The position numbers and the translations under genes are program-made. A stretch of DNA of 64,000 nt from Actinomycetota bacterium (GTDB lineage: Bacteria; Actinomycetota; Acidimicrobiia; Spongiisociales; ZC4RG35), in assembly GCA_046537785.1 (NCBI GenBank), contig JBKHKD010000002.1:71082-135081 (forward strand). Reading direction: 5' to 3'. Position 1 is the stretch's first letter; each line of letters starts with the position of its first letter. Under the pieces are notes generated by a model, which searched no databases, had not been told where the DNA came from, and worked only from the letters and a program-made list of their open reading frames with translations. This document shows, in pieces, positions 40,656-59,754 of the stretch.

Positions 40656-40705
40656 CCGACTCCATCGTTGAGAATCAGTCTCACCCCCTCGCTACTCTGC
40701 GGAGA

Positions 40706-42957: not shown

Positions 42958-44532
42958 TCAGCCGGCGTCATTCTGTAGGAAAGGTTCCATCCTGACAATA
43001 GGTCCACCGAACCCCGCCGCGTAATGACGTGTATCGAGTGTCGGGATTGGCTTTCCTGAGAGACACGACATGACCTCCCGGAATATGTTGACGGTAGTGA
43101 TGTCGTCAGGAAGCTCGCCGCGGCACGGCTCAGGAAGGCGGACGGCGCTTATCGTCGAGAATCGTTCTCTCAGTGCCGCATCAGGATTCTTGGAATCTAG
43201 AACCCAGTAGGAGTCTGGTCCGTGATCAGAGAGGATCACTACGATGGCGTCTGGGTCTACCTGACTCAGAAACGCTCGAAGGGTCTGGTTTGCGCATCGA
43301 ACTTGGTCCACCCACGCGTCTCGACGACGTTCCAACTGTTCCTCGGACATGTTTCCATCGTTCATGATGCGACCACCGAGATCAGGGTTGATACGCAAGT
43401 CGCAGTCGGCGTCCAGGAACAGCGGAGGATGTGGCAATGGAATGTGCAAGAAGACGAATTTCGGCGGCCCACGGCGCCAGTCCCTGACGAAGTCGTTCCA
43501 GTGTTCTAGCTGATCGATTCTCGCCAGGTTCAGGGCTGTCGTCGGGTTGTTGGCTTCCGGGTAGAAGAGACCGCCCGCCGGCGTGTTGAGGAGCAGCGCG
43601 TGTCCGGTGATGTCGAGGCCTGGACCAGGCACGCAGATATCGACCTCACCACCGCATTGGTTGTGCCAGTGGTCAGCTTCGGCATGTATGTACGTGTAGC
43701 CATTCGCTTTCAAGAGATTGACCAGGTCATTCTCACCAGCGACTTGACTCGCCAGATATGCGAGGTCTCGATTAGCGAACTCTGCTCCCTCTTGGTGTAC
43801 ATACGACATATTCAAGAGAGCGGGGAGCGAAAAGTGTGTGACTGAGTAATTGGCGACCGACTCGCGGGCGACATCGAATCCCAGGGCTCGGAGGTCATTT
43901 AGGAACGGCTCGTTGTCGTAGCCATAGAGATCTCGAATCACATCGGATCTCCCGTACCCGTCGAGAACTATCAAGACGATGTCTGGCTTCTCGACGAGCG
44001 TTTCGATCTCGATCGGTGTCTGGACACCTACCGATCGTTCCGGAGCCAGGATCGTGCTCGTCGCCGCATACAGCGACAGCGCTCCCGAATATGCCACAGA
44101 AATCACGAAGACGAGAAGCTTGAAGTAGTGCTGGTTGCCATACTTGATTGCCGCTGACAACACGAGTAGGAACACGATTAGGGATGTCGCGGCAGGATCA
44201 AGAGGACCGAAACCCTCTCCAGCGGACCAATGCCAGAAGGAGAGCAGCGTGACAGAAACTGCGGCGAGCGCCCTCCAGCTGGACACATCACGACGGGCAA
44301 ACGGAAGATACAGCCCTGTTGAGATGACGGTGAGTGCGGTACCGATGATGAAAACGCCCTCCACTGAAGCAAGAGCGGCCTGAGTGCCAGTCATGACAGC
44401 CAAGGGGCGATGGAACGACAGGGCGGTCAACTGCAAGAGAGCCCACCAAAGCGAAGGGCGAGCCCGGCTGGTTAATGAAGAGCCAACTCTCGCTGGTGGT
44501 GCGAGAGACTTCCGGTTACCCGCGACAGTCAT
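42958..44532 (-). CDS. Membrane-anchored alkaline-phosphatase-superfamily enzyme, paralog 2
   Basis: N-terminal TM segments; KPDIVLIVLDGYGRSD, SVTHFSLP, FVFLHIPLPHPP and ILSDHGPDS. Noticeably lower GC. Confidence 0.7.
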   Translation of the reverse strand: MTVAGNRKSLAPPARVGSSLTSRARPSLWWALLQLTALSFHRPLAVMTGTQAALASVEGVFIIGTALTVISTGLYLPFARRDVSSWRALAAVSVTLLSFWHWSAGEGFGPLDPAATSLIVFLLVLSAAIKYGNQHYFKLLVFVISVAYSGALSLYAATSTILAPERSVGVQTPIEIETLVEKPDIVLIVLDGYGRSDVIRDLYGYDNEPFLNDLRALGFDVARESVANYSVTHFSLPALLNMSYVHQEGAEFANRDLAYLASQVAGENDLVNLLKANGYTYIHAEADHWHNQCGGEVDICVPGPGLDITGHALLLNTPAGGLFYPEANNPTTALNLARIDQLEHWNDFVRDWRRGPPKFVFLHIPLPHPPLFLDADCDLRINPDLGGRIMNDGNMSEEQLERRRDAWVDQVRCANQTLRAFLSQVDPDAIVVILSDHGPDSYWVLDSKNPDAALRERFSTISAVRLPEPCRGELPDDITTVNIFREVMSCLSGKPIPTLDTRHYAAGFGGPIVRMEPFLQNDAG

Positions 44533-44640
44533 GCGTTTCTATTCTGATAGGGAACCATCAAGGAAACTGGCGATTCGGTCGTTAGAGAGTTTGGTGAGTT
44601 TCGGGATCAGGCCACGTTTGTTGCCAACCAGGGAGATCTG

Positions 44641-45951
44641 ATGGTGGAGCCGAGTCCGACGAACGACGTCGTTTACGTGGCGATGAGTGCAGACATCGTG
44701 CACCCCGGCCACATCAATCTGCTGGACAGAGCCGCTGAGCTGGGCCCGGTCACTGTCGGGCTGCTGACTGACGCAGCGATCGCCAGTTATAAGAGGCTGC
44801 CGCTGATGACTTATGAGGAGCGTCGTGCCGTCGTGGCACAGTTGCGACAGGTGAGTGAATTGATTCCGCAGGAGACCTTGGATTACGAGCCCAATCTTCG
44901 AACCCTGAGGCCGCGTTATGTCGTTCATGGCGACGATTGGCGGGAAGGGGTGCAGGCAAAGGTTCGCCAGCGGGTGATCGAAGTGTTATCCGAATGGGGA
45001 GGCGAGCTAGTCGAGCCCCGCTATACGCCAGGGATCTCCTCGACGAGGGTTCATCAGGCTCTGCTCGAGGTGGGGACCACTCCTGACATTCGCCGACGCG
45101 CCCTTCGCCGGCTTTTGGCCGTGCAGCCGATGACGCGAGTGTTGGAAGCGCACAACGGGTTGACTGGGCTCATCGTTGAACACACCACGGTCACTCAGGC
45201 CGAACGCCAGGTGGGTTTCGACGGTATGTGGCTCTCCAGCCTGACGGATTCGACGATCAAGGGGCGACCGGACACCGAGTACGTGGATCTGACGTCTCGA
45301 AGTGCCACTCTCCAAGAGATCCTCGAGGTCACGACGAAACCGATCCTCTATGACGCGGACACCGGCGGTCTCATCGATCACTTTCAGCTCAAGGTCAAGA
45401 CCCTGGAGCGTCTTGGAGTGTCCGCTGCAGTCATCGAAGACAAGGTCGGGCCGAAGAAGAACTCGCTCTTTGGCACCGATGTCGACCAAACCCAGGACGA
45501 TACCGCCTCGTTCGCTGAGAAGATCCGGGCTGGCAAGGAGGCTCAGGCTACCGAGGATTTCATGGTGATTGCCCGGATCGAGTCGCTGATCCTGGGAAAA
45601 GGTGTGGGCGACGCCCTGGAACGAGCGAGGATCTACGAGGAAGCCGGCGCCGATGCCCTCCTGATTCACTCCCGTGACCCGGACACCTCAGACTTGTTCA
45701 AGGTCCTGGGCGAGCTCGCCGGGTCGATTCCGCTGGTTGCAGTCCCATCTGGCTACTCGCATGTCTACGAGGACGCGCTCTCCCAAGCAGGAGCCTCCCT
45801 CGTCATCTATGCGAACCATCTGTTGCGGGCCGGGTATCCGGCGATGGTCGCCACGGCCAGCTCCATCCTGGAACACGGTCGCGCCAAAGAAGCCGAAGAA
45901 TGCTTACTTCCGATCAGCAACGCTCTCGAGCTCATCCCAGGTAACCGATGA
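44641..45951 (+). CDS. ppm: Bifunctional cytidylyltransferase / phosphoenolpyruvate phosphomutase fusion
   Basis: N-terminal roughly 130 aa TagD-like cytidylyltransferase ([19 protein letters not shown] … VHGDDWREG). C-terminal PEP mutase ([49 protein letters not shown]). Confidence 0.85.
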
Positions 45952-47057
45952 TCGAGGGCCAGGAGGCCATCCGGCTGTTGGAAGGGGCGGGGGCACGACT
46001 GTTCGTCGGAGTGCCCGATTCGCTCATGAAGGGCTTTTGCAGTGCCCTGGGTGACCATCGAGGTCCGGGTCGTCATGTGGTGGCCGCCAACGAGGGAGGG
46101 GCGGTGGCGACTGCGGCGGGCCATTATCTGGCGACAGGACGGCCGGCTGTGGTCTACATGCAGAATTCCGGCTTGGGAAACGCAGCGAGCCCCCTCGTCT
46201 CGCTGGCGAGCCGGCGGGTTTATGGGATCCCGATGCTGCTGATCATCGGATGGAGGGGTGAGCCCGGGACCGTGGATGAGCCGCAGCATGATCACCAGGG
46301 TGATATCACGACTCAGCAGCTCGAGCTTTTGGAGATATCGATATCGGTGGCGGAGCCCGACGACGATGGTTCCGTGTTCGTAGCTGCATACGAGAGGGCC
46401 CTGTCGGGTCAGGTACCCGTGGCAGTTCTGGTCCGCAAAGGAGTATTCGTTCCGCCACCCGAGATCGCTCCCGGTGGCGGATTGACACGGATGTCTGCGA
46501 TGGAGATGCTTCTCCAGCAGCTTCCGACAGACACCGCCTACGTAGCGACAACCGGATACACGGGACGCGAGTTGGCCCTCCTCCGCGCGAAGAGGGAAGA
46601 GAGTTGGTCCTCGGATCTGCTGATGGTGGGATCGATGGGACACGCCGCAGCGATCGCGCTCGGCATCGCCGTAGGGACCCCCGGACGACTCGTTTGCTGT
46701 TTCGATGGAGACGGAGCCGTGGTGATGCATATGGGGACGCTCGCCGCCGTTGGCGCCGAGCAACCTGCGAATCTCCTCCACGTGGTCATGAACAATGGAG
46801 TCCATGAGTCGGTTGGGGGACAACCGTCGGCTCTGAGGGATGCCGACATCCCCGCTTTGGCGCGCAGCTTGGGTTATGTCAGCGCGGAGGTAGCGACAGA
46901 TAAGGACGAATTGGCCAGCGCCGTCGACCGTCTTCACACAGATTCCGGCCCGAATCTGATCGAGGTGAGGATCAGTTCCGGGACGGTGGACGGCTTGCCG
47001 CGACCGTCGAGTCTCCGTGAGCGTGTCGTCGACATGAGGGATTGGTTGAGTGGCTGA
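45948..47057 (+). CDS. ppd: Phosphonopyruvate decarboxylase (ThDP-dependent)
   Basis: 369 aa; ThDP-binding [13 protein letters not shown]…NNG. ATGA-coupled to ppm. Confidence 0.8.
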
Positions 47058-48165
47058 GGTAACCCGAGGCATTGGCGCGCTCGAGACAAGCTTCAGGTCA
47101 GTCGATGGTTCGCCGTGGATCGTGATGAGTGGGAGGACTTCTTTCTCCGCGTCAGGCGCAGAGGCTTCTCTCGAGGATTTCCTCCAATCGGGGGCCAGAC
47201 GCCTGGTTGTCGAAGGGCCGCTTCCGACGACCGACGAGGTCGACCGTCTGGCGGCGGAGGTCGGGTCGAGTAGACCGCGAGCCATACTCGCCGTTGGGGG
47301 CGGACTGGTCATCGACACGATGAAGGCGCTTGCTCTTGCCCTGAGCACAGGAGGGAGTGCGCAGTCATTGCTCAACGGGAGCGCCGTACCGAGCGATGTC
47401 GAGATCCACACAGTTGCTGCCCCCACGACGGCCGGCTCAGGGGCAGAGCGCACGCCATTCGCGGTGCTGTACCACGATGGTGTCAAGCACTCGGTCGACG
47501 ATCCTCGTCTTCTACCGGATCATTCAATAATCGACCCGGCGTTGAGCAGTTCGGCACCTCGCCACGTGGCAGCCTCTGCGGCACTCGACGCTTTGGCTCA
47601 CTCCGTCGAGTCGATGTGGGCATGCCGGTCGACCGTCGAATCTATTGAGGTTGCGGCTCAGGCCCTAGGGCAAATCGTGGACAACATCGAAACTGGCGTT
47701 GTGGGTGAGTCGGCCCCTGCCCGGGAGACCCTCATGTATGCGGCTTCGGACGCGGGCTCCGCCATCGCGGTGTCGAGGACCACCGCGGCCCACGCCCTCT
47801 CGTACCACCTCACCGCTCGACATGGCGTACCTCATGGCCACGCCGTGGCGCTCATGTTGGGACGGGTCATTGCTTTCAACGGTGAAGTCGACGAGTCAAC
47901 CGTGCTTGATCAGCGCGGTCTGGCCCACGTAGCGTCCGTCGCAGCGCGGATCTCTGCTCTTCTCGGCATCGATGAACCGGTCGACGCCCCAGAGCGATTG
48001 CGTGACCTCGTCGCATCGCTGGGTTTGGCGCCGCGAGCGGATGAGGCGGCAGGCGCCATGGTCGATAGGGAGCGATGGATGACTGAAGTGAATGAGCAGC
48101 GACTCGGCAACAATCCACGACGTATCAACCGTGACGATCTATTAGCAATCGTGTGTGACGCATGA
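47050..48165 (+). CDS. Group III iron-containing alcohol dehydrogenase, putative phosphonoacetaldehyde reductase (PhpC/FomC-like)
   Basis: Fe-ADH fold (AVGGGLVIDTMKA … His-rich metal ligands ALAHSVESMWACRSTVESIEVAAQALGQIVDN…AAHALSYHLTARHGVPHGHAV). The GTG start overlaps ppd. Confidence 0.7.
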   Translation: MAEVTRGIGALETSFRSVDGSPWIVMSGRTSFSASGAEASLEDFLQSGARRLVVEGPLPTTDEVDRLAAEVGSSRPRAILAVGGGLVIDTMKALALALSTGGSAQSLLNGSAVPSDVEIHTVAAPTTAGSGAERTPFAVLYHDGVKHSVDDPRLLPDHSIIDPALSSSAPRHVAASAALDALAHSVESMWACRSTVESIEVAAQALGQIVDNIETGVVGESAPARETLMYAASDAGSAIAVSRTTAAHALSYHLTARHGVPHGHAVALMLGRVIAFNGEVDESTVLDQRGLAHVASVAARISALLGIDEPVDAPERLRDLVASLGLAPRADEAAGAMVDRERWMTEVNEQRLGNNPRRINRDDLLAIVCDA

Positions 48166-49316
48166 GAAAACTTCTCGAGCGCACCCGTCTGGCCATGGCG
48201 GAATCCAACAACATGGGCAAGTTGCTCACCCTCCCCAATGATGACCGTGCGGTCGTTGTCTACGCCGAAGATACGTTTAGCTACATCCAGCTCAAGGGAT
48301 ACCTGCGTGCCCTCTGGGTGAACCACGGGGTGCCTTATCAATACGTGACCTCGGCTCCCGATGATCCTCTTCTCGAAGATCCTCCCCCCGGGGCCACCAC
48401 CTGGTTCATTCGCGAACAACTGGCACGGATGATGAGCTCACTCGAGTGTGGCATCTTCATCACAACCATGCCCGATCTGGGAAACTTCCAGGTTCCCCGG
48501 CCGAAGTCTGGGAGGGCTTTGTATGTCTTCCACTCGCTCAACAGCACTCATACCGCCTATCGCTCTGGCGCATTCGACAACTATGACCAATTCATGTGCA
48601 CGGGACCGCATCACATCGAGGAGTTGGGTCGACTGCGGCCCGACTCGAATCCGGTGCTTTCTGAGGTGGGCTACTACAAGCTCGACCTGATCAGGGAAGA
48701 ACACGCAGATTGGCTTGAACGTGACGCGATCGAGGAGGATCTCGTCCTCCTTGCCCCATCGTGGGGGCGCCATAATCTTCTCGAGGCACACGGAAGTGAG
48801 ATCATCGCCTCGCTGGTAACTTCCGGTTTCCGGGTGATCGTCCGGCCCCATCCGCAATTCTTTCACTCGCTCTATCCCGAAGGCGCCGGGGTGATCGGGC
48901 GCCTCCAAGAGGAGTTTGGCGTCGACCATTCGGTCGAATTCGAGCTCAACATCGACTCTCAAGACTCATTCCATCGCAGCGCCCTGATGATCAGCGACTG
49001 GTCCGGTGCCGCCTACGAGTACGCGCTGGGGACACATCGGCGGGTCCTGTTCATCGATACCCCACAGAAGATCTTCAACCCGGGCTGGGAGCAGATCGGT
49101 CTCGCCAGCTTCGAGGGAGAGATGCGAGACCAGGTGGGTGAAGTGCTGGCCACCGATTCGGTGCATTCCACCGGGAACGTTGCCTACGACGTGATCCGAC
49201 GAAGCCGCTACTCCCGCTCCGACCTCGCGGAATTGGCGAGCCAAAAAATCTTCAACCTGGATGAGAGCGCCAGGGTCGGTGCCGAAGTAATCGCAGATAC
49301 CCTCTCTCGCTCATGA
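48162..49316 (+). CDS. TagF/TagB-like CDP-alcohol phosphotransferase family protein
   Basis: LLAPSWG (compare the TagF YAPTWR motif), VIVRPHP and ISDWSGAAYEYA (compare DYSS). ATGA-coupled upstream and downstream. Confidence 0.6.
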   Translation: MRKLLERTRLAMAESNNMGKLLTLPNDDRAVVVYAEDTFSYIQLKGYLRALWVNHGVPYQYVTSAPDDPLLEDPPPGATTWFIREQLARMMSSLECGIFITTMPDLGNFQVPRPKSGRALYVFHSLNSTHTAYRSGAFDNYDQFMCTGPHHIEELGRLRPDSNPVLSEVGYYKLDLIREEHADWLERDAIEEDLVLLAPSWGRHNLLEAHGSEIIASLVTSGFRVIVRPHPQFFHSLYPEGAGVIGRLQEEFGVDHSVEFELNIDSQDSFHRSALMISDWSGAAYEYALGTHRRVLFIDTPQKIFNPGWEQIGLASFEGEMRDQVGEVLATDSVHSTGNVAYDVIRRSRYSRSDLAELASQKIFNLDESARVGAEVIADTLSRS

Positions 49317-50860
49317 CTTTCCGAGACCCGGATCTGTCCGTGCCTCCGCGGCGGCTTCACTGGGTGGACTTTGCCCTCATCGCGATACCGGCCTTCCAAT
49401 TGCCACTTTTGGTCGTCGCTGAGAATGGTATCGGTATTGGACATCCGGAGCTTCTGTTGTTCTTCGGCGGTCTGGTATGGGGGTTAGGAGCGCTCATTCT
49501 CGTTGTCGTGCGCCGGCTCGGTGTCCCTGGCTCGGTCTCGGTACTCGGAGCGTGGCTCTGTGTCTACCTGTTCATGAACACTGGGGCGATTCCCGATAGG
49601 TTCGGATATCCACTCGGGCTGCTCGTGACTCTCGGGACTCTCACCATCTTGCTCTATCTGGTGTCTCAGAGGCCAGAGATCCGTAGTCGGCTCGTCCTAG
49701 GTCTAGCGAGTGTCCTGCTGCTGGCCGAGATACTCATCACCGGGTATGCGACCTTCGCCGACTTTGGGGAAAGTCGGGTCGCTTCTAGTCCGAGCTCGGT
49801 CGACGTCGAACTCGAGCAGAAGCCCGACGTGGTGATGATCATTGCGGACGCTTACGCGGGCGTAGATGGCTTGAGTCGATATTTCGACGTCGATTCACGA
49901 GTGAAGAACACGTACTCGATGAGCGGATTCTGGGTTCCAGACTTGGCATTCTCTCCATACGCAAGTACCGACACCGCACTCTCGACGATGCTGGACATGA
50001 GCTATCCCCTTACTGCCGGACCGGGCATAACTCGTGCGACAAGGCGGGATCTGTACAGGCTGATCGGAGGCGACAACCGCGTGGTCGATGTCTTTCGACA
50101 AAACGAATACCAGGTCACCATGATCGAATCCGGTTGGAGCGGATCGACCTGTGGTGATGTGATCGATACCTGTCCGAGCCCATTTATCGATGAGAGTGTT
50201 TATATCATGCTCGCCGAGACTTGGATTGGCGATCTCGTCCTAGACAGGTTTGGCTACGCGTTCACGGTGGGTACTCGGTCGTCGATGTCATGGCTGGATG
50301 ACAATCTCGTCGAACTGGCGACCGACGAGAAGCCGGACTTCGTTTTTGCCCATCTCGGTATACCGCATCCACCAATGTTCCTCGACTCGGATTGTGAGCT
50401 GCAGGTGACCCCGGACCGGAACGGTGTGACCATGCAGCGACGAGACGTTCCAACCGACGACAGGAAGAAGCTCTATCTCGAGCAGGCAGCGTGTGTCGAT
50501 TCGTTCGTCACGTCACTCGCCGACTCATTGCCGAATGATGTTGTGTTGATACTGACCGGCGACCATGGGACCGACTCGCACCACCAACTGGCAGAGCATC
50601 CGGAGGATTGGTCGACTGACATGATTCGCGAACGATTGAACACGATGTTTGCCTTTCGCGGTCCCGAGGAATGCCGACCGCCCGAGCCCGTTCTCACGGC
50701 CGACCTCTTCCGGCATCTGTTCACCTGCCTGAGTGACGAATCATTGCCGGTGCCACCGCAACAGTTGTACATCTATGCCGCTCTGGAGATCGATGGGGCA
50801 CCCTCACCGATCGTCGAGGTGGAGCCATCGGTGATCGCTGAACTTGTCGGTGGGAGCTGA
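49313..50860 (+). CDS. Membrane-anchored alkaline-phosphatase-superfamily enzyme, paralog 3
   Basis: N-terminal TM segments; KPDVVMIIADAYAGVDG, FVFAHLGIPHPPMF and ILTGDHGTDS. Last gene of the phosphonate operon. Confidence 0.7.
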   Translation: MTFRDPDLSVPPRRLHWVDFALIAIPAFQLPLLVVAENGIGIGHPELLLFFGGLVWGLGALILVVVRRLGVPGSVSVLGAWLCVYLFMNTGAIPDRFGYPLGLLVTLGTLTILLYLVSQRPEIRSRLVLGLASVLLLAEILITGYATFADFGESRVASSPSSVDVELEQKPDVVMIIADAYAGVDGLSRYFDVDSRVKNTYSMSGFWVPDLAFSPYASTDTALSTMLDMSYPLTAGPGITRATRRDLYRLIGGDNRVVDVFRQNEYQVTMIESGWSGSTCGDVIDTCPSPFIDESVYIMLAETWIGDLVLDRFGYAFTVGTRSSMSWLDDNLVELATDEKPDFVFAHLGIPHPPMFLDSDCELQVTPDRNGVTMQRRDVPTDDRKKLYLEQAACVDSFVTSLADSLPNDVVLILTGDHGTDSHHQLAEHPEDWSTDMIRERLNTMFAFRGPEECRPPEPVLTADLFRHLFTCLSDESLPVPPQQLYIYAALEIDGAPSPIVEVEPSVIAELVGGS

Positions 50861-51289: not shown

Positions 51290-52672
51290 GTGAACAAGTT
51301 GTCCGTCCTCATGCCCGTCTACAACGAGTCGCGCACCTTGCGGACGATTGTCGCCAAGGTGCTTGCCTCACCGGTCGACGCTGAGATCGAGTTGGTCTGT
51401 GTAGATGATTGCTCGAAAGATGATTCTCTTGCGATTCTTCACGAGCTGGCAGAGGCCGATTCCCGGATCAGGGTCATTGCCCAGTCGGTGAACTTGGGCA
51501 AGGGCAAAGCGATCCGTACCGCTATCGGGCACATGACCGGCGATGTCGGGATCATCCAGGACGCCGACTTGGAGTATGACCCGAATGAGTACCCGCTCGT
51601 TCTGGCGCCGCTCCTGGAAGGACGAGCCGACGCAGTGTACGGCTCCCGGTTCGCCTCCAGCGAGCAGCGTCGTGTCCTCTTCTTCTGGCACGCGCTAGGC
51701 AACAAGCTGCTCACGCTCATGTCGAATATGGCCAACGACCTCAATCTCACCGACATGGAGACCTGCTACAAGGCGGTTCGCGCCGACGTTCTCAAGGAGC
51801 TTCGACTCACCAGCGACCGGTTCGGGCTTGAGCCGGAGATCACCGCTCGCCTCGCCCAGTGGGGCGCCCGTATCTACGAGGTGCCGATCAGTTATCACGG
51901 ACGCACCTACGCCGAAGGCAAGAACATCGGTTGGAGAGACGGAATGGAAGCACTCTGGCTCATCTTTAAGTTCCGGCTTCTCGACACTCGAGCGACGAAC
52001 GAAGACTCGGTCGTCACGAGGCAGAGCCTGGGGAGTGCCCCCCGCTTCCGCCGCTGGATCCTGTCATCGTTTGACGACTACCTGAGAGACACCGTGCTCG
52101 AGATCAATGCCGGGCCGGGGCACACTACTAGCCATCTGCTCGACGCAAGGAGACTGATCGTCTCTGATGAGGAGCTGGTCCACGTCGAATCGCTGCGTCG
52201 TCGTTTCGGTCACTTGGAGAACGTCGAGGTGATGACGAGCGAAGAGTTGGATCACTCAGACGTGCGGGTCTCGTCGGCTCTGGTGTTCGACGGGTTACAA
52301 CGTGCCGGCGAGCCCAAGGAGTTCTTGGCCTCGGTAGCGTCTCATGTCGAGTCGGGCGGTCATGTTCTCATCCAGGTGCCCGCGGGCCCTGAGCTCTTCG
52401 GACCCACCGACAGGGCCGCTGGGCATGTGAAACGCTTCGACCGCCAAGATATCGAAGATGTCGTTCGCGCCGCCGGGTTGGAGCTCGTGGATATTGCCGA
52501 GGTGAACCGTCTCGGAGCCCTCGGCTGGAGGCTCCATCATTGGCTGGGGAAGGGGCGCATCACGACGTCGGAGGCTCGTCTCTTCGACCTCCTGGTTCCG
52601 CTGGTACGCTCGCTCGACCCCATCTTCCCCGGCCGTGGCCTCAGTCTGCTGGTGGTGGCTCGATCGCCTTGA
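51290..52672 (+). CDS. GT2 (DPM1/GtrB-like polyprenyl-phosphate glycosyltransferase) fused to a C-terminal class-I SAM methyltransferase-like domain
   Basis: LSVLMPVYNE, CVDDCSKD and IQDADLEYDP (GT-A DxD), then VLEINAGPGHTT, a Rossmann-type MTase motif I. Confidence 0.7.
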   Translation: MNKLSVLMPVYNESRTLRTIVAKVLASPVDAEIELVCVDDCSKDDSLAILHELAEADSRIRVIAQSVNLGKGKAIRTAIGHMTGDVGIIQDADLEYDPNEYPLVLAPLLEGRADAVYGSRFASSEQRRVLFFWHALGNKLLTLMSNMANDLNLTDMETCYKAVRADVLKELRLTSDRFGLEPEITARLAQWGARIYEVPISYHGRTYAEGKNIGWRDGMEALWLIFKFRLLDTRATNEDSVVTRQSLGSAPRFRRWILSSFDDYLRDTVLEINAGPGHTTSHLLDARRLIVSDEELVHVESLRRRFGHLENVEVMTSEELDHSDVRVSSALVFDGLQRAGEPKEFLASVASHVESGGHVLIQVPAGPELFGPTDRAAGHVKRFDRQDIEDVVRAAGLELVDIAEVNRLGALGWRLHHWLGKGRITTSEARLFDLLVPLVRSLDPIFPGRGLSLLVVARSP

Positions 52673-52743
52673 CCGAAGTCCCTGTGGAACGGGCGCTCAG
52701 GCTCAAGTCGGCCTTGCCCCTGCCGATGGCATAACAGAGTCCT

Positions 52744-53484
52744 TTGCGTTGGGAGCACGCAATGTATCGAAATCTGAGAGTCATGGGCTTAGTACCTGTG
52801 CTCGATGAGGAGAAGAAGGTCGGTCTCGTTCTCGAGCGAGTCCCCACCGACGTCGTCGACCTGACCCTGGTGATCGATGACGGATCGACCGACGCCTCAG
52901 CTCAGGTAGCGCGCTCCAAAGGTGCCAAAGTGATCGAACTCGGGGCCACTGTCGGTGTCGGAGCAGCGATCAGGACCGGGTTCCAGTACGCGATCGCAGA
53001 AGGGTTCGATGTGGTCGTCGTGATGGCGGGAAATAACAAGGACTCCCCGGAGGAGATCCCGCTGCTCTTGGACGAATTGACCGATCGCCCGGCGGACTTG
53101 GTTCAGGGCTCCAGATGGTCGGGCGATGCTAGTGACTTCGGAGAGATGCCGGCCTATCGCAAGGTGGCCACACGCCTTCACCCGATGCTGTTCAATCTCA
53201 TCTCCCCCGTCAAGCTGACAGACACGACCAACGGCTTTCGGGCTGTCCGTACCAGCCTCCTCGCCGATGAGGACCTGAATCTCGATCAGAGCTGGCTCGA
53301 CGACTACGAACTCGAGGTCTATCTGCTCTATAGGGCGGCCCAGCTCGGGTACGAGCTCTCCGAGGTCGGCGTCACCAAGAGATACCCTCCGAAGGCATTG
53401 GGGCAGACAAAAATGAAGCCGATATCGGGATGGTGGTCGATCCTTCGTCCGCTGGTTCTGCTGGCCGTACGGCTCAAGAGGTGA
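52744..53484 (+). CDS. GT2 family glycosyltransferase (DPM1-like)
   Basis: LVIDDGSTD and VVVVMAGNNKDSPEE…LVQGSRW. Confidence 0.75.
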   Translation: MRWEHAMYRNLRVMGLVPVLDEEKKVGLVLERVPTDVVDLTLVIDDGSTDASAQVARSKGAKVIELGATVGVGAAIRTGFQYAIAEGFDVVVVMAGNNKDSPEEIPLLLDELTDRPADLVQGSRWSGDASDFGEMPAYRKVATRLHPMLFNLISPVKLTDTTNGFRAVRTSLLADEDLNLDQSWLDDYELEVYLLYRAAQLGYELSEVGVTKRYPPKALGQTKMKPISGWWSILRPLVLLAVRLKR

Positions 53485-53499
53485 GGAAGTGACTCGAAA

Positions 53500-54531
53500 A
53501 TGATGACAGGAATCGGAGTCGTGGGTGCCGGTCATTGGGGTCCCCACCTGATACGAAACTTCAACGATCATCTGTCCAGTCAGGTCCTCTGGGTAGCGGA
53601 GAGGGATGAGCGTCGCAAGAAGGGCATCTCGGAACGGTTTCCGGGGACGGCAGTCACTGCTGATGTGGATGAGATTCTGTCGGATGACCGGGTCGATGCC
53701 GTCATCGTGGCGACACCGACTTCTACCCACGCTGCGATTGTTCAAGATGCGCTGGAAGCCGACAAGCACGTACTAGTGGAAAAGCCCATCGCCTATGGTC
53801 TTGAGGACTCCATCGCCCTTTGCGAGATGGCCGACAGCCGAGGTCTCACGTTGATGGTGGGGCACGTGTTCCTGTTCAACCCAGCGTTCCGTGCCGCACG
53901 GGATTACATCCACCGGGGCGACTTGGGGCTCATCAGATACCTGTCAATGGTTCGTACCAATCTGGGTCCGGTTCGCACCGACGTGAACGCTGCTTGGGAC
54001 TTGGCCAGCCACGACGTTTCCATCGCGAACTATTGGCTGGATGCGCTGCCTAAGAGTGTCAGTGCAAGAGGAGGGAGTTGGCTGAACGAAGGGATCGACG
54101 ACGTCGTCTTTGCGACTCTCTCCTATCCGGATGATGTGCTCGTGCACATCGAAGCTTCGTGGCTGAATCCGAGAAAGCGACGTCTGGTGGCGGCTATCGG
54201 GTCTGATCGCATGTTGACGGTGGACGACATGGATCTGAACGAGCCAATTCGCCTTTATGACAAGGGGGTCCTAGAGCGCCCGAAGGAGGACTTCTCTGAT
54301 ACCTTCGCCGGTTTCCGCAATCAGATCAGAGAGGGAGAGGTGCGTATCCCCCATGTCACCGGAGGCGAGCCCTTGCGAACCGAGTGTGACGAGTTTTTGC
54401 GCCGCATCGCGGGCAGCGATGACACCCTTTCCGATGGATGGGAGGGAGCACGGGTCGTCGCGGTACTCGACGCGATTGACCGATCGATCGTTGAGGGCGG
54501 TGCCTCCATCGTCGTGGAGAAGATTCGATGA
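53500..54531 (+). CDS. Gfo/Idh/MocA-family NAD(P)-dependent sugar oxidoreductase (WbpB-like)
   Basis: GIGVVGAGHWGPHLIRNF Rossmann motif plus a Gfo/Idh/MocA C-terminal domain. Confidence 0.85.
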   Translation: MMTGIGVVGAGHWGPHLIRNFNDHLSSQVLWVAERDERRKKGISERFPGTAVTADVDEILSDDRVDAVIVATPTSTHAAIVQDALEADKHVLVEKPIAYGLEDSIALCEMADSRGLTLMVGHVFLFNPAFRAARDYIHRGDLGLIRYLSMVRTNLGPVRTDVNAAWDLASHDVSIANYWLDALPKSVSARGGSWLNEGIDDVVFATLSYPDDVLVHIEASWLNPRKRRLVAAIGSDRMLTVDDMDLNEPIRLYDKGVLERPKEDFSDTFAGFRNQIREGEVRIPHVTGGEPLRTECDEFLRRIAGSDDTLSDGWEGARVVAVLDAIDRSIVEGGASIVVEKIR

Positions 54532-55631
54532 AGGTTCCCCTGGTCGATCTGGCCTGGCAACACCGGCAGATCGCGGATGAGGTCGAGCGGGGCCTGCATG
54601 AGGTGATGGAGACCACTGCCTTCATTCACGGGCCACAACTACATTCGTTCGAGGAGGCGTTCGCGTTGTTTCTCGGAGTCGAGCACTGTGTCGGTGTGGG
54701 GAGCGGGACCGATGCCCTCGAGTTGACGGTGAGAGCCCTCGACATCGGGCCCGGAGATGTCGTTGTGGTCCCGGCCAACAGCTTCATCGCCAGCGCCCTC
54801 GGCATCCTCCGGGCCGGAGCCGACGTCGTCCTGGTCGATTGCCATCCCGACACCTACCTGATGGACGTGGCGCGGGTGGCCGACCTCATCGACTCCAAGG
54901 TGAGGGCGATCATGCCCGTCCATCTCTACGGTCAGATCGCGCCGATCGAGGACATGCCCGACTTGCCTGAGAGGGTGGTGGTCATCGAGGATGCCGCGCA
55001 ATCGCAAGGAGCCACCCGTAACGGGGAAGGGTCAGGCTCGTTCGGTGTGGCGGCTGCGACGAGCTTCTATCCCGGTAAGAACATCGGGGCCTACGGCGAC
55101 GGGGGGGCGGTGCTGACGGACGATGACGCCCTCGCCGCCCAGGTGAGGAAGTTGGGCAACTGGGGGTCGGCCGAGAAGTACCACCATCCCGAGTTGGGGT
55201 TCAACTCCCGACTCGACACCGTTCAGGCGGTCATCCTCCAGGCGAAGTTAAGCCGCCTCGCGGAGTGGAACGGGATGCGCCGCGCCGCCGCCGAGTGGTA
55301 TCGAGAGGCTCTCCACGACGTGGAGAAGGTGTTGCTTCCACTCACACTGGAGGGGAACGAGCACATCTGGCATCTCTTCGTGATTCGGGTACCAAACCGG
55401 GATGCGGTGTTGGCGCGGTTACATGGGCGTGGTGTGGGCGCCGGCATCCATTATCCGGTTCCAATGCACCTCCAGGGAGCGCTATCTGATCTGGGCTATC
55501 GCAGAGGTGACTTTCCGGTAACAGAGAGAGTTGCCGGTGAGATCCTTTCACTGCCCATCTACCCGGGCATCACCGAAGCCCAGCAACAGTACGTGGTCGA
55601 GTCCCTGAAAGAGGCATTGGCGTTCTCCTGA
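54528..55631 (+). CDS. DegT/DnrJ/EryC1/StrS-family PLP sugar aminotransferase (WbpE-like)
   Basis: VPLVDL…, GVGSGTDAL and the family Lys region; 367 aa; ATGA-coupled. Confidence 0.9.
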   Translation: MKVPLVDLAWQHRQIADEVERGLHEVMETTAFIHGPQLHSFEEAFALFLGVEHCVGVGSGTDALELTVRALDIGPGDVVVVPANSFIASALGILRAGADVVLVDCHPDTYLMDVARVADLIDSKVRAIMPVHLYGQIAPIEDMPDLPERVVVIEDAAQSQGATRNGEGSGSFGVAAATSFYPGKNIGAYGDGGAVLTDDDALAAQVRKLGNWGSAEKYHHPELGFNSRLDTVQAVILQAKLSRLAEWNGMRRAAAEWYREALHDVEKVLLPLTLEGNEHIWHLFVIRVPNRDAVLARLHGRGVGAGIHYPVPMHLQGALSDLGYRRGDFPVTERVAGEILSLPIYPGITEAQQQYVVESLKEALAFS

Positions 55632-55632
55632 C

Positions 55633-56199
55633 ATGGCCACGGACTATTTCGCCCACCCCACTGCTCTGGTCGAGACCGACGACGTCGGTTCGGGGAGCAG
55701 AGTCTGGGCTTTTGCCCACGTGATGGAAGGTGCGATCCTAGGACGGCATTGCAAGGTCGGAGACCATTCGTTCATTGAGGGCGGTGCGTCGCTGGGTGAT
55801 CGTGTGACTGTCAAGAACGGGTGTCTCATCTGGCACGGAGTACACATCGGCGACGATGTCTTCGTTGGTCCGAATGTCGTGTTCACCAACGACATGAGAC
55901 CTCGGGTTCGGTATCAGACGACTTCTCAGGAATGGCTGGACACCGAGGTAGGGGAGAGAGCTTCAATCGGGGCGAACTCGACGATCCTCTGCGGAATCCG
56001 CATCGGACGCAACGCGATGGTCGGGGCGGGGTCCGTCGTAACCAAGAGTGTGAAAGACCACGCCATGGTCGTGGGCAATCCGGCCCGACAGGTCGGCTGG
56101 GCGTGTGACTGCGGTGAGTCTCTCGATGGGGACCTTACATGTGCGGCATGCGGCCGCTTCTATCGAAAGGGCTTGAAGGGTTTGGAGGAAATCGAATGA
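55633..56199 (+). CDS. Hexapeptide-repeat (left-handed beta-helix) sugar N-acetyltransferase (WbpD-like) with C-terminal Cys4 ribbon
   Basis: Hexapeptide repeats (IGDDVFVGPNVVFTND…) and a CDCGESLDGDLTCAACGRFY tail. Confidence 0.8.
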   Translation: MATDYFAHPTALVETDDVGSGSRVWAFAHVMEGAILGRHCKVGDHSFIEGGASLGDRVTVKNGCLIWHGVHIGDDVFVGPNVVFTNDMRPRVRYQTTSQEWLDTEVGERASIGANSTILCGIRIGRNAMVGAGSVVTKSVKDHAMVVGNPARQVGWACDCGESLDGDLTCAACGRFYRKGLKGLEEIE

Positions 56200-57299
56200 A
56201 GCGATCGCTTGCTCTCCTGGCCCTCGTGGCCATGATCCTCAGCGCATTGGTGGTCGTTCGGCTCTTGGCGCTTCACGATTTCAACCCGACCACGACGATC
56301 AAGTTCGGCGAAGTCTTCGAAGAGCACAACGAGTATGCCGAGGAGTTGCTCGGTGAGGTGGTTCTTGCTCCTGAGGCCGGCCACGATGGCAAGTTCTTCT
56401 TCTCTCAGGCGATGGATCCGTTCTATCTGGAGCCTGAGGATCATGCGATCTATCTGGATCGCCCGAGTTACCGGGCGCAGAGGATGGCTTATCCCACCTT
56501 GGCCTCTTTGGGAGGGACTCTGGGGGCGCTTGGCACCGCTTGGGGTTTGATCGCGGTCAACATTGTGGCGATGGTGGTTGGCTCGGTGTATACGGGCCTC
56601 GCCGCCACCCGAATGAATCTGTCTCCATGGTTTGGCCTCGCCTTTCTCTTCAATCCAGGGATGATCGTCGAACTCGGCATCGACGGCGGTGGGGTAGTGG
56701 CCATGGCGGGGATGATGGCCGGCGTCTATTACATGCTCCAGGATCGAGTCTGGCTTGCTGCCGTTGCCCTCTCCATCGCGGCATTGGCCCGTGAGACGAT
56801 GCTCATCGCGGCGATAGGGCTGGCAGCCTTCATCCTCTTCCGCTGCCGAAGACTGGAGTGGAAGCTGGCGATGCCCGTAACCGTCGTTGGTGCTTGGTGG
56901 GTATACGTCCGCGCGCGACTCGACGAAGCGCTCGCCCAGGACACCCAGGCTCTGGCCCTCCCGTTTCAGGGTATTGCCGGAGCCTTCCGAGGGTGGGTGA
57001 GTTCGTCCGGAGATGCTCTCGACCTCGTGGTCGGATGTGTCGTTCTACTGGTCGCGCTTATGGTGGTCGTCCGGTCGGCAATATCACCCACTGCTCTCGG
57101 TTGGGCGGCGGCAGGCTTTGCCCTACTTGGCGTGATACTCTCCGAACCGGTCTGGGCAAAGTGGTTTGACTCGACCCGAGCCCTCGCCCCTGTTCTCACC
57201 GCCTACATCCTGATGGTGCCTGCCACCTCGCGGACCACCGCCACTCCTGAGGAGTTGCGTGAGTCGGAGATTCCCCTCTCCTCATCATCTTCGTCTTGA
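56196..57299 (+). CDS. Polytopic membrane protein, paralog A (possible GT-C-like glycosyltransferase or polymerase)
   Basis: Signal/TM MKRSLALLALVAMIL, then a periplasmic loop with GHDGKFFFSQAMDPFYLEPEDHAIYLDRPSYRAQRMAYP, then about 8 TM segments. ATGA-coupled to the acetyltransferase. Confidence 0.55.
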   Translation: MKRSLALLALVAMILSALVVVRLLALHDFNPTTTIKFGEVFEEHNEYAEELLGEVVLAPEAGHDGKFFFSQAMDPFYLEPEDHAIYLDRPSYRAQRMAYPTLASLGGTLGALGTAWGLIAVNIVAMVVGSVYTGLAATRMNLSPWFGLAFLFNPGMIVELGIDGGGVVAMAGMMAGVYYMLQDRVWLAAVALSIAALARETMLIAAIGLAAFILFRCRRLEWKLAMPVTVVGAWWVYVRARLDEALAQDTQALALPFQGIAGAFRGWVSSSGDALDLVVGCVVLLVALMVVVRSAISPTALGWAAAGFALLGVILSEPVWAKWFDSTRALAPVLTAYILMVPATSRTTATPEELRESEIPLSSSSSS

Positions 57300-57348
57300 T
57301 GCGTGAGTCAGGCATCGACAGGTCCGCCCATAGAGAGTCGGGTATCGC

Positions 57349-58452
57349 ATGACGTCCAATACGCCCGCGGGGCGCGTTCGAGGAGTGTTGGTGCTGGTTG
57401 CTCTGGTTGGGATCCTGTTGCCCCTGATGAGCGTCTTTAACGTACTCGAGCAGACAGGTTGGGACCCTTCGATACTCGTGTCCTTCGGTGAAGATGCCAG
57501 CCCCACGACCGAGTATGGAAAGGAGCGCCTCGGAGACGTCTCCCTCCGGGCGGGCCAAGGCCACGACGGCAAGTTCTTTTTCGTCCAGGCCAACGATCCG
57601 TGGGTGCTTGACCCCCAAGCCAACGCAATGGTCCTTGACCGTCCTCTTTACCGCAGCCAGCGAATGCTCTACCCAGTGCTGGCCGGTGGGGCGGGTTTGT
57701 TCGCGCCTGGGATGATCGTCTGGTCGATGCTGATCTTGAACCTGCTCGCCATGGGAGTGGGCACCTGGGTGGTTAGCCTCATCGCCATGGAGATGGGTGG
57801 CTCGCCTTGGGGTGGCCTCGCCTTCGCCTTGAACATCGGCTTCTTCAGCGAGATCAACATCGGGGGGGCAGGCGTCGTAGCGGCGGTCGCAGCCTTCGGC
57901 GCGGTGCTGATGTTTATGCGTCGTCGGACCGCGGCCGGGGTCGGTCTGCTCGTTGCAGCCGTTCTGGCTCGCGAGGCAATGTTGATTGCCGCTGCCGGAA
58001 TCGCCTTCTGGTTGTGGCTGAGGGGCCGACGCAAGCCGGCGATGATGACCGCCCTAATCCCGGGTCTTTGCGTCATCGCATGGGCCGGGTATTTGCGGCT
58101 CCGGATACGGGACGGTGCCGTCGCCTCTGAGGTGCAGGAGATCGGCTGGCCGTTCGTCGGCTTCGTCGAGGCCTTCGAGAGTTGGGTCGGCGACCCGATC
58201 GATCTGGCCGTCGGAGTCTCCATGATGTTGCTATTCGTCCTGTTCGCCCGTCGTGTTTTCATGAGCGGACACGTCGTGGGATGGGCGTTCCTAGGCTTTG
58301 TGTTTCTGGGTGTGGTATTCACCGAACAGGTTTGGCACTCGTACTTCGACATCACCCGGGCAGTGGCGCCCATCATCACGTCGTTCGTGCTACTGGTGTT
58401 TGTCGGAACCCGACACCACGACAGGCCACTGACTGCTTCAAAAGCCAAATAG
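57349..58452 (+). CDS. Polytopic membrane protein, paralog B
   Basis: Same architecture; loop GHDGKFFFVQANDPWVLDPQANAMVLDRPLYRSQRMLYP. Confidence 0.55.
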   Translation: MTSNTPAGRVRGVLVLVALVGILLPLMSVFNVLEQTGWDPSILVSFGEDASPTTEYGKERLGDVSLRAGQGHDGKFFFVQANDPWVLDPQANAMVLDRPLYRSQRMLYPVLAGGAGLFAPGMIVWSMLILNLLAMGVGTWVVSLIAMEMGGSPWGGLAFALNIGFFSEINIGGAGVVAAVAAFGAVLMFMRRRTAAGVGLLVAAVLAREAMLIAAAGIAFWLWLRGRRKPAMMTALIPGLCVIAWAGYLRLRIRDGAVASEVQEIGWPFVGFVEAFESWVGDPIDLAVGVSMMLLFVLFARRVFMSGHVVGWAFLGFVFLGVVFTEQVWHSYFDITRAVAPIITSFVLLVFVGTRHHDRPLTASKAK

Positions 58453-59625: not shown

Positions 59626-59754
59626 CGGAGGGACATAAAAGCGCGTGATCTCTTCCGACGACCGACATATCAGTCGTGCAGTTGTTAGGATCAGAACATG
59701 TGTTCGAAGGTGATGCGCATTACACTTGCGTAACTTCCGACCACCAGGCGAGCT

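Follow-up and report, generated by a model that had tools for sequence, protein, structure and literature searches.

The closest described counterpart of the gene considered here is Fom1, from the fosfomycin pathway of Streptomyces wedmorensis, whose cytidylyltransferase (CyTase) domain, in the account of Cho et al. (2017), makes CMP-HEP from CTP and 2-hydroxyethylphosphonate (HEP) and is available as a structure (PDB 5x3d); this cytidylylation is transient and belongs to a small-molecule antibiotic pathway. The architecture is widely catalogued, with PF01467 fused to 23.6% of 1485 RefSeq phosphoenolpyruvate (PEP) mutase (Ppm) enzymes that carry EDKxxxxxNS (Rice et al. 2019, PMC6697681). The same inventory covers the PntC-Ppm fusions (LicC-like, PF12804), represented by the 2-aminoethylphosphonate (AEP) cytidylyltransferases Ari1348 and Tde1415 and located in cell-surface tailoring clusters, and it calls the post-activation steps of phosphonates “enigmatic.” HEP attached to exopolysaccharide has been described for Stackebrandtia nassauensis and Glycomyces sp., whose clusters, as reported by Yu et al. 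(2014), contain a PhpC-type alcohol dehydrogenase.

The window analyzed here, 64,000 nucleotides of contig JBKHKD010000002.1, stems from an uncultured Actinomycetota metagenome-assembled genome and carries a CyTase-PEP mutase fusion with exactly the architecture of the PF01467-Ppm class, to which it adds one more member without architectural difference. The preliminary description had presented this architecture as noteworthy, a view that its earlier cataloguing does not bear out. The fusion is like Fom1 in its domain order (N-terminal PF01467, then C-terminal PEP mutase), in its identical HxGH, GDDW, and YTPGISST motifs, and in the predicted supply of HEP by an adjacent phosphonopyruvate decarboxylase (Ppd) and Fe-alcohol dehydrogenase (Fe-ADH). 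With PntC-Ppm, it shares the activation of a phosphonate by a nucleotidyl domain fused to Ppm, whereas PF12804 is unrelated to the HxGH domain PF01467 and the characterized PntCs prefer AEP, HEP being expected here. The proposed product class is that of the HEP-phosphonoglycan actinomycetes, a likeness drawn by published description rather than by cluster sequence, and unlike those producers, the present locus is known from genes alone.

The fusion gene and its two domains

The gene, its domains, and their motifs are as follows.

44641..45951, plus strand: Fom1-type CyTase-PEP mutase gene, 436 aa (ORF with PF01467 and PF13714; TIGR02320 above cut-off; matches to PDB 5x3d and 1m1b; three assemblies)
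44665..45072, plus strand: cytidylyltransferase domain, aa 9-144 (69.9% identity to the Fom1 CyTase crystal construct 5x3d; invariant residues; model)
44701-44712, plus strand: HxGH motif, H21-P22-G23-H24 (HPGHINLL)
44929-44940, plus strand: GDDW motif, G97-D98-D99-W100 (GDDWREG)
aa 128-135, plus strand: YTPGISST motif, Y128-T129-P-G131-I-S133-S134-T
45097..45948, plus strand: PEP mutase domain, aa 153-436 (37% identity to mussel 1m1b, E 3e-40; 13 active-site residues; TIGR02320 at aa 155-435)
45436-45465, plus strand: EDKxxxxxNS motif, E266-D267-K268...N274-S275

The reading frame opens with ATG, with a Shine-Dalgarno sequence (GGGAG) 5 nt upstream, and at the sequence level it is confirmed as a single uninterrupted polypeptide in which a cytidylyltransferase is fused N-terminally to a PEP mutase. 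Given an intact and identical 436-aa ORF in three independent assemblies and both domains in all 120 of the 120 best database relatives (423-482 aa), a sequencing or assembly frameshift was rejected, including the possibility that the gene is split in other assemblies. Full-length relatives number thousands across bacteria and archaea in the database search, and some of them already carry names for the two-domain type.

In the N-terminal domain, aa 17-139 match PF01467 (CTP_transf_like; 53.6 bits, cut-off 21, E 3e-14). The domain is also matched by TIGR00125 (53 bits against 27.7), and it aligns with the Fom1 CyTase (5x3d) at an E-value of 4e-62 with 95 of 136 residues identical. Its YTPGISST segment, spelled with the same letters in Fom1 in the 5x3d alignment, fits the C-terminal CyTase motif (R/Y)TxGIS(T/S)T. 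Across 38 relatives of 61-86% identity, neither domain varies in its catalytic motifs, with H21, G23, H24, K51, R52, D98, D99, W100, Y128, T129, G131, S133, and S134 all unchanged on the CyTase side. This invariance, combined with 70% identity to an active crystallized domain, rules out a non-catalytic N-terminus, and a LicC/PntC-type domain was likewise rejected, with no PF12804 match at E <= 0.001 in Pfam.

TagD, the glycerol-3-phosphate cytidylyltransferase (1coz), can be aligned with aa 16-102 so that the two GDDW motifs coincide (E 2.6e-8), and since the Fom1 CyTase aligns at 4e-62, Fom1 rather than TagD is by far the closer relative. TagD is like the present domain in superfamily, HxGH, and GDDW; it is a distant kin, however, and the present domain differs in its expected phosphonate substrate and in its fusion to Ppm. 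Orthology with TagD was rejected (TIGR01518, 37.7 bits, cut-off 165.4), leaving superfamily kinship only.

In the C-terminal domain, PF13714 (PEP_mutase) covers aa 156-410 (164 bits, E 6e-48); the domain also exceeded the cut-off of the equivalog TIGR02320, “phosphoenolpyruvate mutase” (353.4 bits against 319.55). The scores for PF01467, PF13714, and TIGR02320 lie far above anything that chance would give. All 13 mapped active-site residues of the mussel enzyme are kept (S46, L48, D58, D85, D87, E114, D115, K116, K120, N122, S123, R159, and H190). By these sequence criteria, the domain is a genuine PEP mutase, predicted to convert PEP to phosphonopyruvate.

The structural model of the fusion places strands and helices across aa 11-144 and gives the linker a pLDDT of about 64. 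Because the global confidence of the model is only moderate (pTM 0.71), inter-domain geometry is not readable from it.

The observation of a CyTase-PEP mutase fusion is thus confirmed as real, with PF01467, PF13714, and TIGR02320 in one ORF, and the HPGHINLL, GDDWREG, and EDKxxxxxNS signatures named in the preliminary description are all found in it. The label “TagD-like” used there holds for the HxGH superfamily (TagD/CCT/ECT) and fails for TagD itself. Judged by its sequence, the protein is a Fom1-type bifunctional enzyme of a known and widespread kind, not a new one; its class is catalogued, the prototype has been characterized in both structure and biochemistry, and the fusion itself adds nothing new.

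The operon and the predicted route to CMP-HEP

Five genes from 44641 to 50860, each overlapping the next by 4-8 bp, form a translationally coupled operon in which the fusion gene is followed by four others.

45948..47057, plus strand: phosphonopyruvate decarboxylase, Ppd (overlapping the fusion gene by 4 bp; TIGR03297; 76/80 related loci)
47050..48165, plus strand: group III Fe-alcohol dehydrogenase, probable phosphonoacetaldehyde reductase (PF00465 and PF25137)
48162..49316, plus strand: TagF/TagB-like GT-B transferase, 384 aa, candidate CMP-HEP phosphonyl transferase (family Pfam matches, fold, hhalign, position)
49313..50860, plus strand: membrane protein with a C-terminal alkaline-phosphatase/sulfatase-superfamily domain, 515 aa, last gene of the operon (PF00884, 28.4 bits; N-terminal TM-like segments)

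In the proposed pathway, the C-terminal domain of the fusion would first convert PEP to phosphonopyruvate, which Ppd would carry irreversibly to phosphonoacetaldehyde; the Fe-ADH would then yield HEP, and the N-terminal HxGH domain would combine HEP with CTP to give CMP-HEP and pyrophosphate. The decarboxylase passes the cut-off of its equivalog (TIGR03297, 395.4 bits, cut-off 312.5), and among the 80 closest related loci, Ppd accompanies the fusion in 76 and the Fe-ADH adjoins it in 74. The best NCBIfam match of the dehydrogenase is TIGR03405 (Phn_Fe-ADH) at 145 bits, well under the equivalog cut-off of 423.7, so that HEP formation is read from context. We infer HEP as the expected CyTase substrate because of the approximately 70% identity to the Fom1 CyTase together with the adjacent Ppd and Fe-ADH, and the nucleotide-linked phosphonate foreseen in the preliminary description is accordingly the predicted product. 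The channelling that it read into the fusion is not supported: the mutase product is phosphonopyruvate, HEP would arise only after two separately encoded enzymes, and direct channelling is not implied because the fused domains would catalyze the non-consecutive steps 1 and 4. As a link between these two steps, the fusion is more likely to serve co-expression, stoichiometry, or assembly.

The best-surviving alternative, which we still consider unlikely, is that the CyTase activates a phosphonate other than HEP, such as AEP or a HEP derivative (e.g., 1,2-dihydroxyethylphosphonate or methylphosphonate). PF01467-Ppm fusions occur also in AEP-transaminase clusters (GCF 743), the dehydrogenase falls below its phosphonate equivalog cut-off, and a gene for a DegT-family aminotransferase is found 8.5 kb downstream. 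That aminotransferase, however, best matches nucleotide-sugar transaminases, neither a class-V AEP transaminase nor a HEPD/MpnS-like soluble oxygenase was found among the scanned ORFs of the island, and both the identity to the HEP-specific Fom1 CyTase and the recurrent adjacency of the Fe-ADH favor HEP.

The TagF-like transferase and the glycan-assembly genes

The fourth gene of the operon encodes the candidate consumer of the activated phosphonate. On the 384-aa protein itself, PF04464 scored 11.1 bits against a threshold of 22.1 (E 0.18), while 32 of 35 members of its family matched this model at E <= 0.01 (best 7.5e-10). An AlphaFold model (pLDDT 94.1) is predicted to adopt the TagF-type GT-B fold, with TagF chains occupying ranks 1-12 of the PDB fold search (E 1e-12 to 3e-11, TM 0.60-0.62) and other GT-B folds following at E 1e-7 or weaker. 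An hhalign comparison of the family with a canonical PF04464 protein, at a probability of only 73% (E 3e-5), aligned four motif blocks (FHS/WHG, APSWG/APTFRE, RPHP/REHH, and SDWSGAA/SDYSGAW), in which the family-invariant H124 (FHS) and H230 (RPHP) fall on the WHG and REHH of that canonical protein. In TagF, the catalytic histidines are H444 and H548, and PDB entry titles name variants at both. Sequence and profile searches of the family against PDB sequences gave noise only, and the link to TagF therefore rests on family-level Pfam matches, the fold search, and hhalign.

TagF (3l7i) and a TagF-like capsule polymerase with CMP (8a0c), which use a CDP/CMP-linked donor, share the GT-B fold and are the best structural matches of the 384-aa protein. 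Unlike TagF, to which it is about 12% identical, this protein lacks the extra N-terminal region, the S. epidermidis TagF being 721 aa long, and its predicted donor is a CMP-phosphonate (one P-O-P anhydride and a C-P bond) rather than CDP-glycerol. In 20 of the 80 loci, and only in those 20, which span many phyla, a member of the family is found at a constant place behind the HEP genes; in other loci, the same slot is taken by LicD, canonical PF04464, or PF04464-Stealth phosphotransferases. From this conserved position, we infer a CDP/CMP-activated donor with release of CMP, and by analogy, a role as CMP-HEP phosphonyl transferase is plausible. Within the limited literature covered, no link between PF04464/TagF and Ppm clusters was found.

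Around and beyond the operon lie further membrane and glycan-assembly genes.

42958..44532, minus strand: membrane alkaline-phosphatase/sulfatase-superfamily paralogue, 524 aa, divergently transcribed (PF00884, 41.7 bits; TM segments)
51290..52672, plus strand: GT2 glycosyltransferase fused to a methyltransferase domain (PF00535 and PF13489; syntenic homologue in related locus L001 57% identical)
52744..53484, plus strand: GT2 glycosyltransferase (PF00535; best NCBIfam matches AglJ, PpgS, and dolichyl-phosphate hexose transferase, i.e., polyprenyl-phosphate sugar synthases, all below cut-off)
53500..55631, plus strand: sugar-nucleotide modification pair, GFO/IDH/MocA dehydrogenase plus DegT-family aminotransferase
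53500-54531, plus strand: GFO/IDH/MocA dehydrogenase (PF01408; best NCBIfam match UDP-GlcNAc 3-dehydrogenase, below cut-off)
54528-55631, plus strand: DegT-family aminotransferase (PF01041, 350 bits; best NCBIfam match PseC-type transaminase, below cut-off)
56139..58452, plus strand: two tandem polytopic membrane proteins of a “cell surface glycopolymer formation” family (NF046093, AZOBR_p60025; multiple TM segments)

The tandem membrane proteins matched NF046093 at E 3e-37 and 1.5e-29, both below its 150-bit cut-off. Three paralogous proteins that combine TM segments with PF00884 are encoded within or beside the operon; the products of 42958-44532 and 49313-50860 share 28% identity (E 9e-44), and the former gene is syntenic in the related loci L001 and L002. 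For its 524-aa product, the PDB sequence search returned noise only and NCBIfam gave no match.

These paralogues could be the true transferases, and they underlie a second alternative, in which CMP-HEP would lead to a phosphonolipid with a HEP headgroup or to a lipid-linked intermediate, and the paralogues would move HEP to an extracytoplasmic acceptor. Their N-terminal TM block followed by an alkaline-phosphatase-superfamily domain recalls the layout of LtaS/EptA, and one of their genes shows translational coupling with that of the TagF-like protein. Sulfatase-family genes have also been noted in the literature in clusters assigned to phosphonolipids. We regard this lipid route as decidedly unlikely, given that such paralogues co-occur with the fusion in just 4 of the 80 loci, that sequence searches link them to no protein of known structure or function, and that neither a CDP-alcohol phosphatidyltransferase nor another lipid-synthesis gene was found among the ORFs scanned in the island.

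Proposed fate of the activated phosphonate

Most likely, the TagF-like GT-B transferase would perform the fifth step of the proposed pathway, moving the hydroxyethylphosphonyl group from CMP-HEP to a glycopolymer hydroxyl with release of CMP, a step modeled on the use of CDP-glycerol in teichoic acid synthesis. Synthesis of the acceptor glycopolymer would fall to the glycosyltransferases encoded downstream, the dehydrogenase and aminotransferase that modify sugars, and the membrane proteins. We assign a probability of roughly 70% to this five-step reading as a whole, that is, a Fom1-type enzyme in an operon that attaches HEP to a cell-surface glycopolymer via CMP-HEP. Decoration is read from the neighbors, namely the TagF-like transferase, the glycosyltransferases, the sugar-modifying pair, and the glycopolymer-formation membrane proteins, and from the finding that no fosfomycin tailoring genes were detected: Fom3 (radical-SAM), Fom4/HppE, and FomD/DUF402 did not appear among the scanned ORFs (including every one of 200 aa or more from uvrB to uvrA, and all lying beyond window position 26000), on which basis a fosfomycin-type cluster (fom1-4, fomA-D) was rejected.

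The weakest alternative, a fosfomycin-like small-molecule pathway in which CMP-HEP is a tailoring handle later hydrolyzed to a free phosphonate, would be exactly the mode of Fom1, with its closely similar CyTase, but is very improbable next to glycan-assembly neighbors, without a Fom3-type B12/radical-SAM methyltransferase or the other two Fom proteins among the scanned ORFs, and with LicD, TagF, or Stealth phosphotransferases filling the same slot in related loci of many phyla. As the genomic context differs from that of Fom1, with glycan-assembly genes as the partners, cytidylylation here is probably donor activation rather than a transient handle. The suggestion in the preliminary description that the fusion marks macromolecule decoration therefore stands for this locus through its neighbor genes, while the fusion by itself is an unreliable marker because the prototype Fom1 cytidylylates transiently for a small-molecule antibiotic. 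The fusion does serve as an annotation anchor, identifying the island between uvrB and uvrA as a HEP/CMP-HEP phosphonate locus whose product most likely decorates a cell-surface glycopolymer. Phosphonoglycans play a part in phosphorus cycling, and they may also help to protect against grazing or phage.

As a lead with some mild novelty, the locus offers only the TagF-like neighbor, not the fusion. We tentatively propose, at slightly less than even odds, that the ~380-aa family serves specifically to transfer the hydroxyethylphosphonyl group from CMP-HEP to cell-surface glycans, within a portable four-gene module (CyTase-Ppm, Ppd, Fe-ADH, and transferase) spread across many bacterial phyla. If so, the fusion enzyme would still be of a known type, and the new part would be the HEP-attaching transferase, a candidate that makes the “enigmatic” post-activation step directly testable.

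The family has 688 database relatives, mostly annotated as “hypothetical” or misannotated as “YidC/Oxa1 insertase,” and some homologues carry the NCBI name “CDP-glycerol glycerophosphotransferase family protein.”

A coupled operon opened by a cytidylyltransferase-PEP mutase fusion

Five genes at 44641-50860 each overlap their neighbour by 4-8 bp, pointing to a single operon with translational coupling.

Genes of the phosphonate operon
44641-45951, +: cytidylyltransferase (CyTase)-PEP mutase fusion, a single 436-aa ORF and first gene of the operon
45948-47057, +: phosphonopyruvate decarboxylase (Ppd), TIGR03297 395 bits against a cut-off of 312.5
47050-48165, +: group III Fe-alcohol dehydrogenase (Fe-ADH), best NCBIfam match TIGR03405 (phosphonate Fe-ADH) at 145 bits, far under the cut-off of 423.7
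48162-49316, +: TagF-like protein of 384 aa, without a Pfam match above threshold
49313-50860, +: membrane protein of 515 aa with a sulfatase/alkaline-phosphatase-superfamily domain

The fusion starts with ATG, with GGGAG 5 nt upstream, and its translation carries all the motifs quoted in the preliminary description: HPGH at residues 21-24, GDDW at 97-100 and EDKxxxxxNS at 266-275. PF01467 (cytidylyltransferase-like) matches aa 17-139 with 53.6 bits against a gathering score of 21, PF13714 (PEP mutase) matches aa 156-410 with 164 bits, passing its curated cut-off, and the PEP-mutase equivalog TIGR02320 of NCBIfam covers aa 155-435 with 353.4 bits against 319.55. The two-domain architecture, an HxGH CyTase fused N-terminally to a PEP mutase, is thus confirmed far beyond chance.

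A catalytic N-terminus is indicated by the comparison with PDB 5x3d, a 160-residue chain entered under the name 'phosphoenolpyruvate phosphomutase', to which the domain is identical at 95 of 136 residues (69.9%, E = 4e-62). From the description of the fosfomycin-pathway prototype Fom1 in Rice et al., we take this chain to be the crystallised Fom1 CyTase domain. HxGH, GDDW and YTPGISST are the same in both, and H21, G23, H24, K51, R52, D98, D99, W100, Y128, T129, G131, S133 and S134 are invariant in 38 aligned relatives (61-86% identity). The C-terminal domain shares 37% identity with the mussel PEP mutase structure 1m1b and keeps all 13 mapped active-site positions (S46, L48, D58, D85, D87, E114, D115, K116, K120, N122, S123, R159 and H190). 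In the AlphaFold model (mean pLDDT 83, pTM 0.71), the CyTase domain spans approximately residues 10-144, followed by a linker with pLDDT of about 64 and a first mutase helix from residue 148. The gene is not split in other assemblies, the identical 436-aa ORF being found in three independent ones (two Logan runs and NCBI GCA_046543195.1). A word-indexed protein search returned at least 8000 scored relatives, the best 120 of which are all 423-482 aa long with both Pfam domains.

The proposed likeness to TagD holds at the superfamily level, where TagD aligns with E = 2.6e-8, but not at the equivalog level, and a TagD ortholog was rejected (TIGR01518, 37.7 bits against a cut-off of 165.4). A LicC-like PntC type was likewise discarded because a Pfam match to PF12804 is absent.

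In the fusion inventory of Rice et al. 2019 (PMC6697681), 23.6% of 1485 RefSeq PEP mutases with the EDKxxxxxNS motif have a PF01467 fusion, a class 'exemplified by the Fom1 CyTase'. The N-terminal domain of Fom1 transfers cytidylyl from CTP to 2-hydroxyethylphosphonate (HEP), yielding CMP-HEP (PMC6697681), and a review of fosfomycin gives the same reaction. At least 586 fusion-encoding loci occur in a scan of species-representative genomes, in hosts that include Acidobacteriota, Gammaproteobacteria, Patescibacteria and DPANN archaea. The database entry for this exact protein reads 'MAG: phosphoenolpyruvate mutase [Actinomycetota bacterium]', and several relatives are named 'phosphoenolpyruvate phosphomutase / 2-hydroxyethylphosphonate cytidylyltransferase' in JGI. 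The fusion is one more ordinary example of an enzyme class that is known, catalogued and in part characterised. Reduced-genome CPR bacteria (Patescibacterial loci L018, L040 and L045) and DPANN archaea (Nanoarchaeota/Woesearchaeota loci L034, L044 and L067) also have full-length fusions, at 57-61% identity; the match in L034 takes 1733 nt for 432 aa, which suggests an insertion or frame break there.

Proposed HEP activation and a candidate phosphonyl transferase

Among the 80 closest loci, the fusion is accompanied by Ppd in 76 and by Fe-ADH in 74, so the usual partners of this subfamily are genes for HEP formation. By similarity and context, HEP is the probable substrate of the N-terminal domain. 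In the proposed pathway, the C-terminal domain would convert PEP to phosphonopyruvate (step 1), Ppd would form phosphonoacetaldehyde (step 2), Fe-ADH would reduce this to HEP (step 3), and the N-terminal domain would combine HEP with CTP to give CMP-HEP and PPi (step 4); in step 5, the TagF-like transferase would use CMP-HEP on a hydroxyl acceptor, freeing CMP. Since the fused domains catalyse steps 1 and 4, which are not consecutive, the fusion does not imply channelling as had been proposed, and likelier reasons for it would be co-expression, stoichiometry or assembly.

The TagF-like protein itself scores below threshold against PF04464 (TagF/TagB CDP-glycerol glycerophosphotransferase; E = 0.18). 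It has 688 database relatives, many of them with a precomputed PF04464 match or called 'CDP-glycerol glycerophosphotransferase family protein' by NCBI, and 32 of 35 aligned family members scanned singly match PF04464 (best E = 7.5e-10). Its predicted structure is of high confidence (pLDDT 94.1, pTM 0.91), and in a PDB fold search ranks 1-12 are TagF chains (E = 1e-12 to 3e-11, TM 0.60-0.62), generic GT-B enzymes appearing only from E ~1e-7; the matches also include a CMP-bound TagF-like capsule polymerase. Profile comparison with the canonical PF04464 protein of the related locus L012 gave a probability of 73% (E = 3e-5), with aligned blocks FHS/WHG, LLAPSWG/LYAPTFRE, VRPHP/LREHH and MISDWSGAAYEY/MVSDYSGAWVDY, and H124 and H230 are invariant across the family alignment. 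By profile search, the family is present in 20 of the 80 loci, usually 2.2-2.3 kb beyond the fusion gene end, straight after Ppd and ADH, and otherwise immediately upstream, in hosts including Acidobacteriota, Chloroflexi, Acidimicrobiia, Myxococcales, Bacteroidales, Ignavibacteria, Cloacimonadota and Desulfobotulus. Taken together, family matches, fold, motif alignment and conserved position suggest that the protein would transfer hydroxyethylphosphonyl from CMP-HEP to a hydroxyl acceptor with release of CMP. This candidate CMP-HEP phosphonyl transferase is the sole lead with some novelty, no description of the neighbour in that role having been found within the literature searched, to which this absence is limited. 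In JGI, many family members bear the name 'YidC/Oxa1 family membrane protein insertase', which looks like a propagated mis-annotation, because the window protein lacks transmembrane-like segments and is modelled with a GT-B fold.

Where sampled loci lack this family, its slot is taken by LicD-family phosphotransferases, by canonical PF04464 enzymes (213 bits in L012), by a PF04464-Stealth fusion or by glycosyltransferases. One HEP-activation cassette appears to be paired with differing transferase classes by lineage. LicD-family enzymes follow Ppd and ADH in seven Alteromonadales loci (L013, L015, L016, L020, L038, L041 and L050) and occupy this slot in two of Bacteroidales (L064 and L069). 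In Stenotrophomonas mori (L011:13300-16455), a PF04464 TagF-like region combined with a complete Stealth (CR1-CR4) capsule phosphotransferase stands straight after the HEP genes, and a similar protein lies at L006:11240-14956; both, of ~1050-1240 aa, are another candidate CMP-HEP consumer.

Glycan genes and the probable destination of the phosphonate

Genes downstream of the operon
51290-52672, +: GT2 (aa 5-171) fused to a class I methyltransferase (aa 266-400) in a single ORF
52744-53484, +: second GT2, best matches polyprenyl-phosphate sugar synthases
53500-54531, +: GFO-family dehydrogenase, best match UDP-GlcNAc 3-dehydrogenase
54528-55631, +: DegT-family sugar aminotransferase
56139-57299 and 57349-58452, +: tandem paralogous polytopic membrane proteins, NF046093 E = 3e-37 and 1.5e-29
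58438-59796, -: convergent 452-aa membrane ORF without a family match

Several NCBIfam matches of the genes at 51290-58452 lie under curated cut-offs, including those of the tandem membrane proteins to NF046093 ('AZOBR_p60025 family cell surface glycopolymer formation protein'), which score 128 and 103 bits where the cut-off is 150. Exopolysaccharide bearing HEP in ester linkage is known from Stackebrandtia nassauensis and Glycomyces, and this precedent, with the glycan-gene neighbours, supports decoration of a macromolecule by HEP in the window. The fusion alone, proposed earlier as a marker of such decoration, cannot serve as one because Fom1 itself belongs to an antibiotic (fosfomycin) pathway. 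As a whole, the preliminary interpretation was largely correct.

A rival, less probable lipid route, in which the phosphonate may be transferred, trimmed or remodelled outside the membrane, would involve the operon's 49313-50860 product and its two paralogues.

Paralogues outside the operon
39147-40655, -: membrane protein, sulfatase/alkaline-phosphatase superfamily
42958-44532, -: membrane protein, sulfatase/alkaline-phosphatase superfamily

These three proteins of ~500-525 aa, with pairwise E of 9e-44 and 1e-30, lie around uvrB and the phosphonate operon, and their layout, an N-terminal transmembrane block and a C-terminal sulfatase/alkaline-phosphatase-superfamily domain, is reminiscent of LtaS, EptA and similar lipid-dependent head-group transferases. 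Only 4 of the 80 closest loci have them together with the fusion, and neither PDB nor NCBIfam yielded an informative sequence relative. A fosfomycin-like pathway, the setting of Fom1, is unlikely, since no radical-SAM, HppE or DUF402 gene was found among the ORFs scanned, which include all those of 200 aa or more from uvrB to uvrA, window positions 1-26000 lying outside the scan.

Genomic setting

The phosphonate and glycopolymer block (42958-59796) lies between uvrB (40544-42712) and uvrA (59755-62577). Its G+C of about 0.57-0.63 is somewhat lower than the 0.62-0.68 of the window's first 22 kb, and it may therefore be a variable or acquired surface-glycan island. The uvrB-sulfatase-fusion synteny is common to the window and the related locus L002, and a 57% identical GT2-methyltransferase homologue occupies the same position in locus L001. 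In the uvrB ORF (+), UvrB models match from aa 57, 56 codons past the listed start, and the ORF runs into the 5' end of its divergent neighbour at 39147-40655; translation probably begins further downstream, near 40712. A Tad/Flp-type pilus operon at 28063-35798 (+) encodes RcpC/CpaB, a receiver-domain ParA/CpaE-like ATPase, a TadA-type T2SSE ATPase, a 651-aa von Willebrand A and T2SSF (TadB/C) protein, a second T2SSF protein and, last, a 448-aa ORF without a Pfam match.
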